Positions 6,476 to 46,966 of a stretch of 64,000 bases of DNA are shown here, piece after piece. The position numbers and the translations under genes are program-made. The first letter of the stretch is position 1. Each line of letters starts with the position of its first letter. The DNA comes from Anolis carolinensis (Eukaryota), in assembly GCF_035594765.1 (NCBI RefSeq), contig NC_085844.1, positions 148,940,107 through 149,004,106 on the forward strand, read 5' to 3'. Under the pieces are notes generated by a model. The model was given only the letters and a program-made list of their open reading frames with translations, was not told the DNA's origin and searched no databases.

Positions 6476-7004
6476 AGATTAGGATAGCCATGAAGCCTTG
6501 GAACTTGTTCCTCATTCCCCCACCCCCTAAAAACCTATTCACATCACATCCATCTTAATCAGCATTACCCTCACTGACTGTCCTAACACTTTTAACTCTT
6601 TTCCCAAATAGCCCACTCTTCACACCATTATGAGGAGTGTGATTTGCTGGCTCTGTGTTTGCCCAGCTCGCAATGTCCAGACCTATCAGAAGTGGGCAAT
6701 GTTCAGACCTATCAATGTTGTTGGACAGCATCCTACTTGAGCCTTATTATTAGCTAAGGTAGCCAGGGTTGATGGGAGTGTAGTCCTACAACATCATGAT
6801 ACCTTTACACATGGATAGAACTAAGATTCTACATAATTGCCAAGGCTGTTTTTGGAGAGTTGCCAGTATTTAAAATGCCCCATCAGGCTACAAATGGTTG
6901 AATGAGAAATTCCAATATAATACAACTAGCTGTGCCCGGCCACGCGTTGCTGTGGCAAAGTATGGTGGTATGGGAAATAAAGTATTGAGGAATTGGTGGT
7001 AGTT

Positions 7005-7331
7005 AAGGTCAAGGGTAAAGGTTTTCCCCAGACATTAAGTCCAGTCGTGTCTGATTCTGGAGGTTGGTGCTCATCTCCATTTCTAAGCCGAAGAGCCGGC
7101 GTTGTCCGTAGACTCCTCCAAGGTCATGTGGGATGACTACATGGAGCGGCGTTACCTTCCCGCCGGAGCAGTACCTATTGATGCACTCACATTTGCATGT
7201 TTTCGAACTTCTGGGTTGGCAGAAGCTGGGGCTAACAGTGGGGGCTCTCTCCGCTCCCCCAATTCAAACCTGTGGCCTTTCGGTCCAGAAGTTCAGCAGC
7301 TCAGCGCTTTAACACGCTGCACCATCAGGGG
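7005..7331 (-). mobile_element. Sauria SINE inside Helitron 1
   Basis: (ACCTTT)-type tail, AATAGGTACTGCTCCGGCGGGAAGGTAA core, tRNA-like head. Confidence 0.8.
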
Positions 7332-7485
7332 ATATTATTTCCTAAAGGTTGTGAATATACAATATTTCTGATTGGTTTTTTTTTGTTTGTTGGAGGCAAG
7401 TATGAATGCTGCAATTAGGAAAAATGATTCGGATGTAATGGCCTTGCAGCTTTAAAGCCTGGCTGTTTCCTCCCTGAGTGAATTT

Positions 7486-7835
7486 TTTGTTGGGAGGTGT
7501 TAGCTGGCCCTGATTGTTTCCTGTCTGGAATTCCCTTGTTTTCAGAGTGGTGTTGTTTGCGATATTTTATGTGCTTCTACTGTCTGTGGCCCTGAGAAAA
7601 CAGAGGATTTTCCAGACTTTGATGATGGGAATACTTTGTTGGGAGGTGTTAGCTGGCCCTGATTGTTTCCTGTCTGGAATTCCCTTGTTTTCAGAGTGGT
7701 GTTGTTTGCGATATTTTATGTGCTTCTACTGTCTGTGGCCCTGAGAAAACAGGATTTGCCAGACTTTGATGATGGGAATACTTTGTTGGGAGGTGATAGC
7801 TGGCCCCGATTGTTTCCTGTGTGGAATTCCCCTGT
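7486..7835. repeat. ~148-bp tandem repeat (about 2.4 units) inside Helitron 1
   Basis: TTTGTTGGGAGGTGTTAGCTGGCCCTGATTGTTTCCTG recurs at ~7487, ~7636 and ~7782; homologous triplet in Helitron 2 (12800-13280). Confidence 0.9.
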
Positions 7836-8052
7836 TTATTTACTGTCCTGGTTTTAGAGATTATATTGTTCTGCATTATTCTATCCCAGTAATTATTTCA
7901 TATTAAAGAAGAATCTCACTTATCCAACATTCGCTTATACAATGTTCTGGATTATCCAACGCAGTCTGCCTTTTCATAATCAATGTTTTTGTAGTCAGTG
8001 TTTTAAATTCATTGTGATATTTTAGTGGTAAATTTGTAAATACAGTACAGTA

Positions 8053-8370
8053 CAGTAGAGTCTCACTTATCCAACATAAACGGGTCGGCAGAACGTTGGA
8101 TAAGCGCATATGTTGGATAATGAGGAATTAAGGATAACCCTATTAAACATCAAATTAAGTTATGATTTTACAAATTAAGCACCAAAACATCATGTTAGAC
8201 AACAAATTTGTCAGAAAAGTAGTTCAGTACACAGTAATGCTATATAGTAATTACTGTATTTATGAATTTAGCACCAAATATCACGATATATTGAAAGCAT
8301 TGACTACAAAAATGCGTTGGATAATCCAGAACGTTGGATAAACGAGTGTTGGATAAGTGAGACTCTACTG
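8053..8370 (+). mobile_element. Tc1/mariner MITE nested in an opposite-orientation copy of the same family (~7905-8568)
   Basis: TIR CAGTAGAGTCTCACTTATCCAAC / GTTGGATAAGTGAGACTCTACTG flanked by TA. Confidence 0.88.
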
Positions 8371-8583
8371 TAAATACTACATAGCATTACTGCGCATGGA
8401 ACTACTTCTTCTGTCAAATTTGTTGTATAATATGATGTTTTGGTGCTTAATTTGTATAACGATTACCTAATTTGATGTTTAATTGGCTTTTCCTAAATCC
8501 CTTCTTATTATCCAACATATCCACTTATCCTGCCGGCCTGTTTACGTTGGATAAGTGAGACTCTACTGTATATTGATAATCTT

Positions 8584-11129
8584 CTGAGGGAGATAATGGC
8601 GAAATATTATAAAAATCTATATAAGGAAGAGAGGGTAATGCAAGGGAACTTAAATATCAGAGAAAAAATTGCAGAGGAAGACAGAGAGTTATTAAACCAA
8701 CCAATAACGCAAGAGGAAACAATAAGGACAATTAAAGGGTTAAAGGGAGGCAAGTCACCAGGGCCAGATGGATTTCCAGCAGAATATTATAAAGCATTTA
8801 TGGAAGAGTTGGCACCACACCTAACAGAATTGTTCAATGAAATATACACTAAGCAAAAAGTCCCCCTAACATGGAAAGTATCAGAAATTATAACTATACC
8901 CAAAAAGGGGAGAGATTTAACACAACCAGGGTCATACAGACCCATTAGTCTATGCAATCAAGATTATAAAATATTTACAAAAATTTTAGCAAAAAGTTTG
9001 GAAACAATAATGCCAAAAATAATCAAAGAGGATCAATATGGATTTGTGAAGGGAAGAAAAATTGGGGATCCAATAAAAAATGTAGTAATTGCAATGAATC
9101 ATGCAAATTCGAATAAGAAAAAAATGGGAATTCTCAAATTGGATGTTTACAAAGCATTTGATAAAGTCAATCACAATTATCTGTTAGGATTATGTCAACA
9201 GTTGAATATGGGGGAAAACTTTTGCAAAACACTGCAACAATTGTACAGCAACTGTAAAGCAAAAATAAGGGTGAATAATGGAAGGACAGGAGAGATACCA
9301 ATTTTAAATGGTACAAAACAAGGTTGTCCATTATCCCCCACTTTATTTGTAATAGCGATAGAAATGCTAGCTGAAAGTATCAGGAATAGCACCAATTGGA
9401 CAGGGTACAAAATAGAAAAGGAAGGAGGACAAAAGGAAGAAATAAGGCTTAATTTCTTTGCCGATGATGCAATGATTATTACAAGTCAACCGTTAATTAT
9501 GGTAAAAGATATTATTAAAAAACTGGAAGAATTTAAAAATATATCAGGACTATTCGTTAATATTAAAAAGTCAGAGATACTATGTCTTAATACCCCACCA
9601 AGGGAACAACTGGAGATTAGGAAAATATCAGGGTTAAGATTAGGATTAAAGAAGCTGAAATACTTAGGAGTATGGATATATAAAAACCCAAAGAGTATAG
9701 TCAAGGGGAATTATAAACAAAAATGGAAGGTAATAGAGAAACAGTTTAAGAATTGGGAAGGAAAAACATTAACAAGAGTGGACAATAAGGGACAAATGGT
9801 TAAATGCAAAAGAGGAAGAGGGAGGCTGGGGGATTCCAAGTTTAGAAGTCTATCACGATGCGTTTCAAATCCAAAGATTATTGGAAATACAGTATACTAA
9901 AAAAAAATGGGCAAATATGGAGAAGATAATAAATAATACTAAAGAAAAAGAAATAATATTTAGGGAATGGAGTAGGAGAGAAGAAGCAGAATTTAAGGAA
10001 CCTTTTAAAGGAACAATAAAAGTGTGGAAAAAAAGAAAGAAGAAGCTAAGTCCAGGCAATGAGAATAAGATGGCAACTATATGGCAAATTAATTACAATA
10101 ACAACGAAATTATAGGCAGAACATTGAGATCAATTGAAAGTAGAGGGAAAAGGTTAGTGGAGGATTTGTACACAATAGATGGAGACCCTGTAGAACAAAA
10201 AGAAATTCAGAATTGGATAGGATCAGGGAATTGGATTCAAAGCTGGGCTATAAGACAGGAAATTTTTAGATTGAGAGAAAAAATTAGAGAACAGGACAGT
10301 CCATTTGAGAAGGTGATTAGGAAATGTTTGAGAGAGGAAAAGAAGGTGGCAGGAGATCTGTATGAACAAATTATAACGGTAAAAGAAGAAATAGAGGAAA
10401 TTTTCCAAACATGGAGAATGGACATGGAAATTGAGAGGGAAGATATACAAAGGGAAATAAGTAATATAGCAAAAGAAAAGTACAATGTATTAAGGGAAGC
10501 AAGAAGGAAAATGTTACAAAAATGGTACAGAACTCCTGCACAACTTTCACGGTTTTTACCAGGGATGAAAGATAGGTGTTGGCACGGTTGTGAACAAAGA
10601 GGGGTGTTCAATCATATGATATGGGAGTGCGATCGGGTGCAAGAATACTGGAGAATGATTGAAGGAGAAATCAATAGAATGCTAAATCTACAAATAGTAA
10701 TAGTTAATAGAAATGTACTACATGCAAGGATAACAGAAGTGAAGAATATACAAAAAGAAAAAATGATTGACAAATTAATAGCATGTGCACAAATTGTTTT
10801 AGTGAGCGGTTGGAAAGATAAAACAAAATGGACTCTGACGAATTGGTATAAGTATATAATTGATATGTTAAATGTAGAAATCACAAATTGCAAATGGAAT
10901 AATATAGATAAAATTGAAAATGTTGCAATAATCAAGGGGATGTGGGAACCAGTTAAGAACTATTTAGAGAATGTACTAAGATGTGGAGTGGAAAAATTAA
11001 GATTGAGATTGATATTTCAAATGTAACTTCTGTAGTTTGTTGTATAAAGTGTATGTACAAGGAGGGGAGGGTGGGAGGGTGGGAGTGGGATAAGATGACA
11101 AAACAACAATAAAAAAATTAAAAAAAAAA
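8584..11129 (+). mobile_element. 5'-truncated L1-clade LINE (ORF2 RT plus CCHC domain) inserted in Helitron 1
   Basis: KSPGPDGFPAEYYK, YRPISLCNQDYKI, GTKQGCPLSP, FFADD, KYLG, CWHGC..H....C motifs. G-rich 3'UTR, AATAAA, poly(A); 9-bp TSD GATAATCTT (8575-8583 / 11130-11138). Confidence 0.95.
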
Positions 11130-12618
11130 GATAATCTTAAATTATCTGCTTAGAACTGGATTATATGAGGCCCCTTCTTCACAGCTGTATAAAATGCACA
11201 CTGAAGTGGATTATATGGCAGTGTGGAGTCAAGATAATCCAGTGCAAAGCAGATAATATAAGATTATAAATGGGTTATATAGCTGTGTTGAAGGGCCTTG
11301 AGTCTACACTGCCATATAATCCAGTGCAAATTAGATAATCTGTGCAAGAAGTCTAAGTGAGGCCTAAATCTGCCTGTCCCCTAACTGAAACCTGGCTGTC
11401 CCTTGGTTGCTAGGCAACCAAGTGGGCAGAGATTAGCCTTCTAAACTGGCAGCAATTGGATAAAAAAAATTATTGCTCTCCCTCTAATTAGGACTTTATT
11501 TTTCTTTTCTTTTTGTTGTATCAACCTTGAGGCATGGATGATGGGTTGTGTTGTCAAATTTTGAGGTTGGGGGGCCTGTACTTTTGTTGTTTTGTGAATT
11601 GCCGTGATGCCATCACTCTTTTATATATATAGATGATGACAGTTAAAGTGGAATTATAGTGCTATCATAGTGTAATGTAAACAACCTGCCCATTATTGGA
11701 GCAGATGGATTTTTGGCCTCCTTTAGAGTTGAAATCTTTGTCATATTTTTGTGGATCTCTTATGCAATTATATCACTATTCTTCCTGAATTTCTTGGATT
11801 TTAATAAGCAGTCTTGTGATATTTTAAAAACTGTTTATGTTTATGCTGTAAATATCTGTTTATCTTCAAGGTGTTACATTATTTTTTCTCTTCATTGTTT
11901 TCACTACAGTAGTGTAATAGTCTCTCTTTTGGAAATTAGATTTTAATGATTTCCTCCTAGTGTTGTGAAATACAATATGTTAACACTGTTGTGCCCCCTT
12001 ACTGATAAGCAACTACTGAGAGTTAAAGAGGTCCATTTTCTTGTCAATTTTCTGTCTGAATTTTTTTATCTCTTCTCATGAGTGATCTCTAGTGTGGTGT
12101 GCAGGAAAAAAGACCCCTGTTGCAAATCCATACATCACTCATGGGAGAAGAGTTAGGAATGTTAAGCAATTGCTTCCCAAGCAGCAGAAGAATGGACCTC
12201 AAGTGATCCCAGAATCTGCTTACTAGTAAGTAGGGCTTAGAGGACCTCCATAGCTCCTACACAACCCCTAACCCTGGGTTTGCATGGGGATTGTAAATAC
12301 ATAGGATTTGCAAATGCATAGCTGTAGGATACATGCCCACAATTGCCTAACAGGATTCCAGTCAATATTTATTAAACCCTCCTATGAAACAGAGAAACAT
12401 CTGATTTTTTAAAATTATGAAGCACTAGCTGTGCCCGGCCACGCGTTGCTGTGGCTTTTTTTTAGTGGTGTTGGTCAATCTACATTAGGTTTTATTTTTG
12501 TTGTGACTGTCAACAAACATTATACAGTATTATTTTTTCATTTATTATTTTAAAGAAATATGATAGGATATTACACTATAATATATAATAGTATACGACT
12601 ATTTCACAATATTAGTAG

Positions 12619-12659
<41 letters not shown>

Positions 12660-13723
12660 TATTGTATTGTTATTAGTATTATATTGTAGTATATATATAA
12701 TTATATATATAATTATAATATTATTAGCAGTATTATATGTATATACAATGTATTATATTATTATATATATTAATATATTGCAAATTGGCCCCAGAGTATG
12801 GAATGGCCTTGCAGTTTCAAAGCCTGGGTAGTTCCGTGTGTTGGGGGGGGGGGGTGGGAATGCTTTGTTGGGAGGTGCTAGGTGGACCTGATTGTTTCCT
12901 GGATGGAATTCCAGTGTTTTCAGAGTGTTGCTTTTTATTTACTGTCCTGAGATGAGAAAGTGATGAGTACGGAATGGCCTTGTACCTTCAAAGCCTGGCT
13001 GCTTCTGTGCCTGGGGGGGGGGGGGAATCATTTGGTGGGAGGTGTTAGCTGGGTGTGGTTTCCTGGATGGAATTTGTGTGTTTTCAGAGTGTTGTTGTTT
13101 ATTTACTGTGCTGAGATGAGAGAGTGATGAGTACGGAATAGCCTTGTAGGTTCAAAGCGTGGGTGGTTTCCTGTGTGAAGGGGGGAATCGTTTGGTGGGA
13201 GGTGTTAGATGGCCCTGATTGTTTCCTGGATGGAATAGCTGTGTTTTTAGAGTGTTGATCTTTATTTACTGTCCTGAGATGATATTGTTGTGTATTATTG
13301 TACCAGAGTAATTATTTCATATTACAGTAGAATCTCACTTATCCAACATTCGTTTATGCAGTGTTCTGGATTATGCAATGGAGTCTGCCTTTTAATAGTC
13401 AATGTTTTTGGAGTGAGTGTTTTCAATTTATTGTGATATTTTGGTGGTAAATTTGTAAATACAGTAATTACTACATAGCATTACTGCGCATGGAACTACT
13501 TTTTGTGTCAAATTTGTTGTATAACATGATGTTTTGCTGTTTAATTTGTATAATGATTACCTAATTCGATGTGTAATTGGTTTTCCTGAATGCCTTCTTA
13601 TTATCCAACATATTTACTTATGCAACGTTCTGCCGGCTTGTTTATATTGGATAAGTGAGATTCTAGTGTATATTTATAATGTTATATTATTTGTTTAGAA
13701 GTGGATTATATGAGGTGCCTTCT

Positions 13724-13724
13724 G

Positions 13725-13777
<53 letters not shown>

Positions 13778-14212
13778 GTCTTGAATGATTATCATTGTTA
13801 TAAAAATAATAACGTACTATTATTAGTTGTTATTATATTGTTGAATGATTATTATCAATGTTATAATAATTATTAATTTGTGAATAATTCTCACTATAAT
13901 AATAATAATAATTTTCTATTATTACGAATTGTTAATACATTGTTGAATGATTGTCAGTGTTATAATAATTATTATTATGACAGCCTTGAATGTTTATTAT
14001 AGTTAATATAATAATTAGTTATTATTATTAGTTATTATTACATTGTTGAATGATTATCAGTGTTATAATAATAAGAACTGACTATTATTATGAATTATTA
14101 TGTTTTCGAATGATTATCAGTATTATAATAATAATAATAAATTAGTATTATTATTGGTTATTATTACATTCTTAACTGATAATCAGTTATTATTATATTA
14201 ATAATAATTATT
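13724..14212. repeat. (TTA)n plus AT-rich minisatellite inside Helitron 2
   Basis: About 7 copies of TTGAATGATTATCAGTGTTATAATAATA-like units. Confidence 0.85.
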
Positions 14213-14345
14213 ACTCACAGGGAAGGGAAAGGTGAGGGTGATAGGGTTTGAGAGGGAAAAAAGGGGGCTTCAGAGGCATTGGAGGGGTTGTAATTTGTGG
14301 GTGAGAACAACAACAACAATAACAACAACAAAAAAGGGGGGAGCT

Positions 14346-14530
14346 CAGCCTGGGCCAACTTGGGCCTTCCCTTGACTTGTTTTGGGCACCAACTTCCACC
14401 CTTCCTGGCCCGAGGCTCTTTCCTTTTCCCCGTCAGCCATTTAACCGGGTGAGGGGGAAAAGGAAGGGGCCTGAGGCCGGGAAGGGCAGGAGTTGGCGCC
14501 CCAAACAACTCAAGGGGAGGTCCAGGCCTG
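14346..14530. mobile_element. Palindromic hAT-like MITE inside Helitron 2
   Basis: ~70-bp imperfect arms (GGGCCTTCCCTTGA...TTCCTTTTCCCC / GGGGAAAAGGAA...TCAAGGGGAGGTCC); ends CAGCCTGGGCC / CAGGCCTG. Confidence 0.65.
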
Positions 14531-14563
14531 CTCAAGGGCCGTGCCCTCCTCTTCCCCCCTCAC

Positions 14564-14692
14564 CTTGAAGAGCTTGAAGACCTCCAAGAAGAACCGAGAA
14601 GGGAGGAGGAGAGAGGGTGAGGCGGGGGCCTTCCTTGCGCTGAGGGGAGGGGGGAGGGAGCCTGAATTGCGACTGGGGGCCCTCCATGGACC
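14564..14692 (-). pseudogene. Putative Helitron-captured exon (129 nt) of unknown origin
   Basis: Long pyrimidine tract + CAG|GGT acceptor and AAG|GTGAGG donor. Phase-0 translation GPWRAPSRNSGSLPPPLSARKAPASPSLLLPSRFFLEVFKLFK has no stop. Confidence 0.55.
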
Positions 14693-15294
14693 CTGAGGGG
14701 GGAGGAGATTGAGGGGGAGAGGGCAGAGAGCGACTTGAGGCCTGCACACCTCCCAGCACGGCCTCCTGCATCCCGCACCCACCAAGGAATCTGCCTTCCT
14801 ACCTTCCTTCCTTCAGCCCAGGCCCAGCTCTGAGGCGAGGTGTGTGTGTGCGCGTGGGAAGGGATGAGAGGGGAGTGTGCACGCAGGTGCACATCGCCTG
14901 TTGCGGTTTTTGGCCGTTTGTGACCCTGTGATTGTGTTTGTTATGTAAATGTGTTGTATCTTACTGGAGCCATGGATGATGGGTTGTCTTGTCAAATTTC
15001 GAGGTTGGGGGGCCTGTAGATTTGTTGTTTTGTGCGTCGCCGTGATGCCATCACTCATTTATATATATAGATTGTGAAAATAGGCCAAGATTATCCTGGT
15101 CTCTGAACTGTCACACCCAGCTTCTGGAATGATTCCATCAGCTTTGCCTCCGAAATATCCTGCATGTCTCTTGGGAAGACAGGTGGACAAATGTTAGTGT
15201 TCTGGAAGAAACAAAGACCACCAGCATGGAAGTGATGATCCTCTGCGCAGGCCTGTAGCCAGGATTTTGATTCGGGGGGGGGGGGGGGGCTGAC

Positions 15295-44634: not shown

Positions 44635-45424
44635 CTATATAAGACATACAATCTCTATATATAAAAGGATAAAAACATTTCGGCCTAGGACAAAACAACA
44701 AAACTACACATCCCAGAAACAATAAACTTGGCAACACAACCCCTCATCCATGCCTCTACGTTCATACAACAAAAAGAAAAGAAAAATAAAGTCCTAATTA
44801 GAGGGAGAGGAATAATTGTTTTAGCCTCTTCCCCACTGCCTATAAAATACAGATTATCTTATTTGAACTGGATTATATGGCAGTGTAGACTCAAGGCACT
44901 TCCACACAGCTATATTACCCACTTATAATCTTATATTATCTGCTTTGAACGGGATTATCTTGAGTTCACACTGCCAAATAATTCACTTCAGTGTACATTT
45001 TATACAGCTGTGTAGAAGGCCCCTCATATAATCCAGTTCTAAGCAGATAATATAAGATTATAAATATACAGTAGAGTCTCACTTATCCAACATAAACAGG
45101 CCGGCAGAATGTTGGATAAGTTGGATTATAAGAAGGGATTCAGGAAAAGCCGATTAAACATCAAATTAGGTAATGATTATACAAATTAAGCACCAAACAT
45201 CATGTTATACAACAAATTTGACAGTAAAAGTAGTTCAATGCTCAGTAATGCTATGTTGTAATTACTGTATTTACAAATTTAGCACCAAAATATCACAATG
45301 AATTTAAAACATTGACTACAAAAACATTGACTACTAAAAGGCAGACTGCGTTGGATAATCCAGAACACTGTATAAGCGAATGTTGGATAAGTGAGATTCT
45401 ACTGTAATATGAAATAATTACTGT

Positions 45425-46148
45425 GGTAATCCAGTCCAACCCAATTCTGCCAGGGATTCACGCCCAACAGATGGCCACCCAGCCTCTCAATAATAATACA
45501 GTAGAGTCTCACTTATCCAACACTCACTTATCCAATGTTCTGGATTATCCAACGCATTTTTGTAGTCAATGTTTTCAATATATCATGATATTTTGGTGCT
45601 AAATTCGTAAATACAGACAGACAGTTAAAGACACCCCTAAAGGCCATCCAGTCCAACCCAACTCTGCCATTGGACGATACAATCCAAGCACTCCCAACAG
45701 ATGGGCAGCCAGCCTCTCAATAAGAATAAGAATAAAAATATCATACAATCCTAAGGTTAGCAGATACCCCTAAGGATCATCCAGTTCAACTTCCTTATAT
45801 CATGCAGGAGGACACAATCCAACCACTCCTGACAGATGGCCATCCAATATCTGCACAATAATAATACACATCGAATCATAGCACCAGACAGTTAGGAGAC
45901 ACCCCTAAAAGCCATCCAGTCCAACCCAATTCTGCCATGCAGGACACAATCCAAGCAGATGGCCACCCAGCCTCTCAATACTAGTACTAATAATAATAAT
46001 AACAACAACAACAACAACATACAGTCCTAAGATTTAGAGTGACCCCTAAGGATCATCCAGCTCAACTTCCTTCTACCATGCAAGAGGACACAATCCAAGC
46101 ACTCCTGACAGATGGCCATCCAGCCTCTACATAATAATGATGATGAAG

Positions 46149-46196
<48 letters not shown>

Positions 46197-46290
46197 GAAG
46201 CATAGAATCCAAGAGTTTGGAGAGACCCCTAAGGGCCATCTGGCCCAACCCTTTCTACTATGCAGCAGGACACAATCCAAGCATTCACAA
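45425..46290 (-). repeat. About 6 tandem units derived from a CR1-like 3'UTR inside Helitron 3
   Basis: GGCCATCCAGTCCAACCC...CAGATGGCCA.CCAGCCTCT (reverse complement of the CR1 tail) at ~45429, 45645, 45779, 45913, 46053 and 46237. Confidence 0.8.
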
Positions 46291-46293
46291 CAC

Positions 46294-46559
46294 TTTTTTT
46301 TTTCATGTCAGGAGCAACCGGAGTTGCTTCTGGAGTGAGAGAATTGGCCGTCTGCAAGGACGTTGCCCAGGGGACGCCCGGATGTTTTTTGATGTTTTTA
46401 CCATCCTTGTGGGAAGCTTCTCTCATGTCCCCGCATGGAGCTGGAGCTGATAGAGGGAGCTCATCCACACTCTCCCCAGGTGGGATTCGAACCTGGCAGC
46501 TTTCAGGTCAGCAACCCAACCTTCAAGTCACTTAGTCCACTACGCCATCTGGGGGCTCC
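46294..46559 (-). mobile_element. AnolisSINE2-like SINE inside Helitron 3
   Basis: Reverse-complement match to 3897-4159. Confidence 0.85.
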
Positions 46560-46966
46560 AGTTAGGGTTAGGGTTATGGATAACGTATAAATACTATACA
46601 ATACTACACAGGGACATAGAGCCCCTCTACCCTCACCACTACAGTACACAAACAACCAAATGCATACTAAACATAAAGACAACCATACAACAGACATTCA
46701 ATACCACCACTACCTCAACAATTTCTCACCAACACCACCAGACAATGCCACAGCAATGCGTGGCCAGGCACAGCTAGTGAATTATTATAAAATGAGAGGC
46801 AGAAGGGTGATCAAAGATGACAGTTGCTCAGAACACTGGTTTTTCAATCTCCCCTCACAATGGTTTAACTGTTGTAAACTTTCAGTTAACTTATCTATTA
46901 ATTTGTTATATTTTTAGACTTTCTGGGTCACCCACAAAGTACAACTCAAATCATGTAGCCATAGAC

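Follow-up and report, generated by a model that had tools for sequence, protein, structure and literature searches.

The block at 13301..13723 (+) of the 64,000-nucleotide stretch of Anolis carolinensis DNA analyzed here (the window) lies within a Helitron and differs from related copies largely by loss of cytosine from one strand, which raises the question of when, in which molecule and on which strand these changes arose. A preliminary description of the locus proposed that they record hypermutation of this individual copy, through cytosine deamination and abasic-site bypass on a displaced single-stranded rolling-circle intermediate, possibly as a host defense. It put the changes at about ten C>G and ten C>T against about three G>A or G>C; our count, from the window copy that it called copy 3 to the focal copy, is 12, 9 and 3 (2 G>A and 1 G>C), the remaining classes being 3 T>G, 3 A>T, 3 A>G, 2 A>C, 1 G>T and 1 T>C. 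Most of the changes lie outside CpG, as had been stated, and the three sequence examples quoted are all present in the window.

Identity and anatomy of the focal element

The focal element (12425..15071, minus strand; 2.6 kb; copy 2 of the preliminary description) is a canonical non-autonomous Helitron, here assigned to subfamily B, as judged by its TC/CTRR termini (5' TC at 15071-15070, CTAG ending at 12425, both on the minus strand), 3' hairpin, A|T target and an autonomous partner with shared ends; its initial identification as a Helitron was thus correct. Among 107 B loci, the target A is present at 74 of 74 readable 3' ends and the T at 82 of 87 readable 5' ends, three of those lacking the T abutting another Helitron. 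Ahead of the CTAG, the sequence of the 3' terminus (12425..12507, minus strand) shows a hairpin-forming inverted repeat (about 12438-12455), and the 83 bp of this terminus are 96-98% identical to the 3' ends of autonomous Rep/Hel Helitrons; over 164 bp, the 5' terminus (14908..15071, minus strand) matches an autonomous copy with 86% identity. The 5' TC, 3' hairpin, CTAG, A|T target, cargo capture, head-to-tail tandems and an autonomous Rep (PF14214) and PIF1 (PF05970) partner with common ends are features shared with canonical Helitrons, for which Helraiser is the experimental model (PMC5876387).

Searching the 1.85 Gb genome identified autonomous Rep/Hel frames of 1511, 1484 and 1381 aa, with PF14214 (Rep) and PF05970 (PIF1). 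Three near-identical autonomous Helitrons (L304-L306, at C1:182.09 Mb, C4:43.64 Mb and C6:44.43 Mb) have open Rep/Hel frames of 1381-1511 aa; since two of them are 99.8% identical over the frame, the autonomous family is likely still, or was recently, active. The common ends, together with the near-identical dispersed copies, suggest that B is mobilized by the transposase of this partner.

Inward from its 3' end, the focal element comprises an AT-rich low-complexity tract (12500..12778), common to B copies; three tandem units of ~164 bp (12794..13282), which comparison with free copies derives from a dispersed repeat that we take to be Penelope-like; and a Tc1/mariner-type MITE (13325..13668), which forms the core of the block. 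The insertion of the MITE into a Helitron ancestor is evidenced by its TIRs, by TA on both sides, by 29 free copies with TA flanks, and by the empty site in Helitron subfamily D. Beyond the block are a B-specific AT-rich tandem array beginning with (TTA)n (13724..14213) and a captured GC-rich segment (14214..14910) containing a palindrome at about 14361-14524. A protein search with the GC-rich segment gave no match and its source gene was not found; an open frame and a splice-donor-like motif are present on its Helitron plus strand.

Relationships of the Helitron copies in the window

The three copies in the window represent three subfamilies, each well supported in the tree. Subfamilies A (44652..46777, plus strand; copy 3) and C (6926..11633, minus strand; copy 1) serve as comparison lineages; the block is 89% identical to 45014-45428 in A and matches 7887-8583 in C in two pieces. 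The B stem has a length of 0.063 compared with 0.013 and 0.022 for the neighboring stems, and the focal copy is an early branch within B. Two incomplete loci (L152, L153) were excluded from the B tree, one (L033) had no anchor and six group C loci were skipped; five B rows had no anchor in the stem polarization.

The C copy carries a second MITE (8051-8392), reverse-nested in the first, which is fixed in the subfamily (52 copies) rather than being a private insertion. It also contains a private 5'-truncated LINE (8586-11130) with two long frames (8587-9897 and 9773-11023) and an A-rich tail, which is missing from sister copies, e.g. L062, which matches copy 1 without a difference (100%) over 218 bp. 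Subfamily A carries tandem units at 45429-46290 that resemble CR1 3' tails; the corresponding comparison was unusable because the 'free' set turned out to be Helitron-borne.

The changes are inherited marks of subfamily B

The block shares 96-97% identity with its 29 best other matches, which are spread over many contigs. Ten of the 12 C>G and all nine C>T changes are the majority state (mostly 28-29 of 29) in these sister copies on other chromosomes. A diagnostic 22-mer holding three of the changes has 119 exact matches genome-wide, and of 50 further loci, 48 have 22 or 23 of the 23 stem changes; partial deletion or gaps affect the remaining two. These C>G and C>T differences are marks of the subfamily that became fixed in its founder lineage prior to the focal insertion and reached the focal copy by inheritance. 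Looking for the changes in sister copies, as the preliminary description had advised, thus reveals them to be common to a subfamily of more than 100 copies, and its proposal that the focal copy was itself hypermutated does not survive: 19 of 21 C changes are common to sister copies, while the private changes of the focal copy over about 1.7 kb (2 from C, 16 from G) are CpG-rich and are ordinary G>A/CpG decay.

Contigs from four independent studies carry the B letters across the block with at least 94% identity, in short pieces of which the longest listed is 164 bp and none covers the whole block. Base-calling error, which had been named as a possible undoing of the observation, is excluded by this agreement, and a sequencing or assembly artefact was rejected on the same grounds. 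Hypermutation specific to the focal copy, at or after its insertion, was rejected as well, because the changes are common to sister copies and the private changes run the opposite way. An explanation by copy-specific hypermutation or artefact would suit a pairwise comparison within the window only; in view of the 119 exact matches, the identical letters in the four studies and the direction of the private changes, we give it almost no credence.

Polarized spectra of the B stem and the tandem units

To polarize the changes on the B stem, the 29 free MITE copies served as outgroups for positions within the MITE, and beyond 13670 this role fell to subfamilies A and C; the yardsticks are column majorities of free copies, from which the exact source subfamily may differ. 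In the block, the stem holds 10 C>G, 9 C>T, 2 T>G, 1 T>C, 1 A>T, one deleted C and no change from G, such that C was lost at 19 of 74 positions as against 0 of 61 for G (Fisher p=5e-6). The block had been chosen for its asymmetry, and the upstream tandem units (12794-13282), polarized against 12/19 free copies of their source repeat, provide a replication: 21 of 29 C columns are changed versus 3 of 34 G columns (p=2e-7; block and units pooled, p=2e-10). After polarization, the asymmetry exceeds chance; the strand-biased B stem is real and is not accounted for by ordinary decay.

The changes in the units (15 C>G, 7 C>T, 5 C>A) are distributed such that four occur in all three units, six in two and 27 in one. 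Because unit-common and unit-specific layers coexist, the mutating process must have acted more than once or over a period. A further 2 C>G, 1 C>T, 1 T>G and 1 A>G fall on the stem common to B and C, and the older stem has 6 C>T versus 1 G>A. These layers, in the units and on the successive BC and B stems, do not conform to a single event in one molecule.

Two mixed-state probes were used to search for intermediates on the B stem. All 15 matches to the first were scattered single changes with at most 4 of 23 B letters, some of them from misalignment; the 30 of 217 matches to the second that were considered are mostly copies of the MITE-less subfamily D or C/A-like copies, with high B-letter scores arising only from poor alignments. 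Other intermediates may lie beyond the reach of these two probes.

Strand, sequence context and folding

The lost cytosines are on the window plus strand, which is the minus, i.e. template, strand of the Helitron. In Helraiser it is the plus strand that is nicked and transposed, leading-strand synthesis rebuilding the donor (PMC5876387); the lost cytosines are assigned to the template strand because the plus strand is the one transposed. Deamination of the peeled-off strand would give the opposite pattern, namely C>T on the plus strand, whereas 0 of 61 window G positions are changed on the stem. Damage to a displaced single-stranded intermediate, as originally envisaged, is accordingly at odds with the data, the strand that lost C being minus and the peeled strand being plus (PMC5876387). 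Damage to C on the minus strand and damage to G on the plus strand do, however, leave the same counts in sequence.

No context preference was apparent. TpC cytosines were changed at 17 of 34 positions versus 26 of 68 in other contexts (p=0.29), and the changed cytosines have no CpG preference and no 5' or 3' preference; TpC is the deaminase motif of mammalian APOBEC enzymes, and the motif of the host enzymes may differ. Nor are changed cytosines more often paired than unchanged ones in the predicted folding. The original reading thus stands only in part: the excess of C>G and C>T fits deamination with abasic-site bypass, but the changes lack a deaminase-type context and are placed on a subfamily stem, not on a copy.

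The GC skew is 0.27 inside the focal Helitron versus 0.00 and 0.04 in its flanks, so that the bias does stop at the Helitron ends, a check also advised in the preliminary description. All three window copies have G over C on the minus strand (skew 0.11-0.27); their flanks have no such excess.

Extent of the bias beyond the B stem

The bias extends beyond B only partly. Common branches outside B have 17 C>G versus 4 G>C (p=0.008), while later B branches have 2 versus 2, and the young clade has 2 versus 4 within it; with all of these pooled, after de-duplication of nested clades and removal of two segments affected by unit shuffling and by a replaced 5' end, the counts are 21 versus 10 (p=0.07). 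The A and C stems in the block are without bias, and the subfamily D units, with 12 C versus 7 G events, do not differ significantly. Private changes are symmetric, with C:G hits of 40:27, 14:17 and 13:12 for A, C and free MITE copies, respectively, and likewise in nested MITE copies. In the 80 young B copies, 47 private changes are from C and 84 from G, as composition predicts (p=0.53), with 7 C>G versus 16 G>C. Because these changes are symmetric, a single round of transposition would leave little mark, and the B stem would consequently need many rounds or special episodes.

The autonomous partner has a G-poor plus strand. Its fourfold sites comprise A331, C130, T116 and G44, codon boxes free of CpG at positions 2-3 have C64 versus G31 (p=0.0009), and the GC skew of its non-coding DNA is -0.27 to -0.52; the LINE in the window has G over C in the same kind of comparison. 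One well-sampled autonomous stem was hit at similar rates at G (26 of 477) and C (37 of 662; p=1.0), although it leans in the expected direction (G>C 8 versus C>G 5; A>C 17 versus T>G 2), and the same codon boxes of a distant Helitron family show no excess of C over G (30 versus 25). In the GC-rich palindrome of B, G.T mismatches outnumber A.C ones (three copies have 8-10 versus 1, two old copies 9:7 and 6:4), but G.G mismatches are no more numerous than C.C.

Discussion

The explanation that we favor, while placing it somewhat short of an even chance, is that cytosines of the template strand were damaged, and abasic sites bypassed, as the founder lineage of B went through round after round of rolling-circle copying. 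Its observed parts are the sharing of the changes across the subfamily, their polarity, their strand, their accumulation in several steps, and a direction that is the same as that of the G-poor plus strand of the autonomous partner. After nicking of the plus strand, unwinding by a Pif1-like helicase would expose the minus strand for a short time in single-stranded form, while it serves as the template for displacement synthesis. Opposite uracil or abasic sites on it, A or, by a REV1-type polymerase, C would be inserted, so that G>A and G>C would appear on the newly made plus strand, the one that is passed on. The insertion of C opposite abasic sites by REV1-type polymerases is well established. 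Donors are reused and double-stranded circles replicate in the Helraiser system (PMC5876387); if one donor were copied many times over, or circles kept replicating, with no surviving integrations in between, a long one-sided stem lacking intermediates would result. The closest mechanistic parallel is yeast break-induced replication (BIR), in which dU lesions arise on the leading-strand template and lead to G>A and G>C in equal proportion (PMC9262586). Counting against template damage over repeated rounds are the symmetric mutation of recent copies and later branches, the unbiased A and C stems in the block, the equal rates on the autonomous stem, the distant family without skew, and the palindrome in which G.G does not exceed C.C.

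The rival explanations all appear less probable to us. One or a few episodes of long ssDNA exposure in a chromosomal founder, independent of transposition (by BIR, resection or an R-loop) and leaving kataegis-like clusters that were later amplified, would account for the confinement of the strong bias to the B stem, for the symmetry of later and private changes, for the failure of the two probes (15 matches; 30 of 217 matches) to reveal intermediates, and for the tandem duplications gained by B, as from template switching. Changes both before and after the unit duplication would, however, require several such episodes on the same strand, and the direction agrees with a family-wide deficit of G on the plus strand; we regard this explanation as unlikely, though the best of the alternatives. 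Ranked next, and more doubtful, is editing of the exposed minus strand of the founder by a host cytidine deaminase of the APOBEC1/AID type, followed by UNG/REV1 processing. The changes are C-centered and one-stranded, with C>G about equal to C>T, and lizard APOBEC1 is a DNA mutator, G-to-A edited L1 copies having been reported in an anole genome (PMC3880073). Such L1 editing likewise removes G from the sense strand of the element, but as reported it comprises G-to-A transitions only, in single copies (PMC3880073), whereas the B pattern is a G>C-dominant subfamily trait of a DNA transposon; deaminase editing is also opposed by the absence of 5' or 3' context preference, by T>G and T>A on the same strand, and by the later prosperity of the mutated lineage.

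If guanines (and adenines) of the displaced plus strand were the damaged bases, or if bases were misinserted opposite them in second-strand synthesis, giving G>C, G>A, G>T and A>C, the counts would be formally identical. G>T, the usual oxidative product of guanine, is nevertheless the rarest class, and the plus-strand C>T (window G>A) expected with such lesions is found at 0 of 61 positions in the block and once in the units. That the displaced strand is the plus strand (PMC5876387) speaks for this possibility, which we place just after deaminase editing. Selection among competing non-autonomous copies for a G-poor, weakly folding plus strand seems improbable. The B plus strand does fold less (-30 to -32 versus -46 kcal/mol for A), and captured pieces are oriented with their A/C-rich strand as the Helitron plus strand; yet random placement of the spectrum, or its mirror image, unfolds the plus strand equally (-31.6 and -30.6 versus -34.8 observed; 150 placements each), and changed cytosines have no excess of pairing over unchanged ones.

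A defensive role, as suggested for the single copy, is unsupported: the mutated lineage made at least 119 copies, the number of exact 22-mer matches, and about 80 of those sampled are very young (median 0.34%), so that the mutated copies were not dead ends.

Diagnostic substitutions of transposon subfamilies are changes of the master lineage. The B set resembles these in that copies differ through descent from different source elements, but is unusual in being almost purely pyrimidine loss on one strand and rich in transversions. Like kataegis and APOBEC clusters processed by UNG/REV1, B combines C>T and C>G on one strand, in about equal number or with C>G in excess; it differs from these, as from BIR, by its lack of a TpC motif, its several layers, its T>G changes and its setting in a germline mobile-element lineage. 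The asymmetry of vertebrate mitochondrial DNA, which is linked to strand displacement, is transition-driven and affects the displaced strand; its fourfold ranking (A>C>T>G on one strand) and its linkage to replication are the same as for the autonomous partner, whereas in the Helitron C>G leads and the template strand is affected. Lesions of the leading-strand template are the feature in common with BIR D-loops (PMC9262586). We found no report of a strand-specific substitution signature in a Helitron lineage in searches of the open-access literature, and the available part of a review of transposon base composition (PMC9099904) makes no mention of one.

A broader, speculative and in our judgment doubtful proposal is that Helitron rolling-circle replication has a signature of its own (loss of template C, with C>G dominant) that pushes captured DNA towards a G-poor plus strand, and that B records long extrachromosomal or donor-site copying in the germline, its stem asymmetry counting the cycles. 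If the signature is mechanistic, it would be a sequence fossil of Helitron replication in the vertebrate germline, revealing which strand was exposed, and would imply that a founder can pass through many rounds of replication from one surviving insertion to the next; Helitron dating based on divergence would be biased, and the signature would also be of relevance to Helitron-based vectors. It is directly testable, since both intact Rep/Hel frames and very young B copies are present in this genome.

Young B copies and Helitron arrays

The very young B clade (L043-L060, L122-L145 and L253-L302, on many contigs) comprises 80 copies at a median of 0.34% from the column majority. Its 5' end, unlike that of older B copies, is identical to one autonomous copy at 213 of 218 bp (97.7%), and the clade likely acquired this new 5' end before it expanded. 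At L033, L037, L045, L049 and L321-L322, different Helitron subfamilies are arrayed head to tail, a 5' end adjoining the next CTAG, and some such arrays also adjoin autonomous copies.
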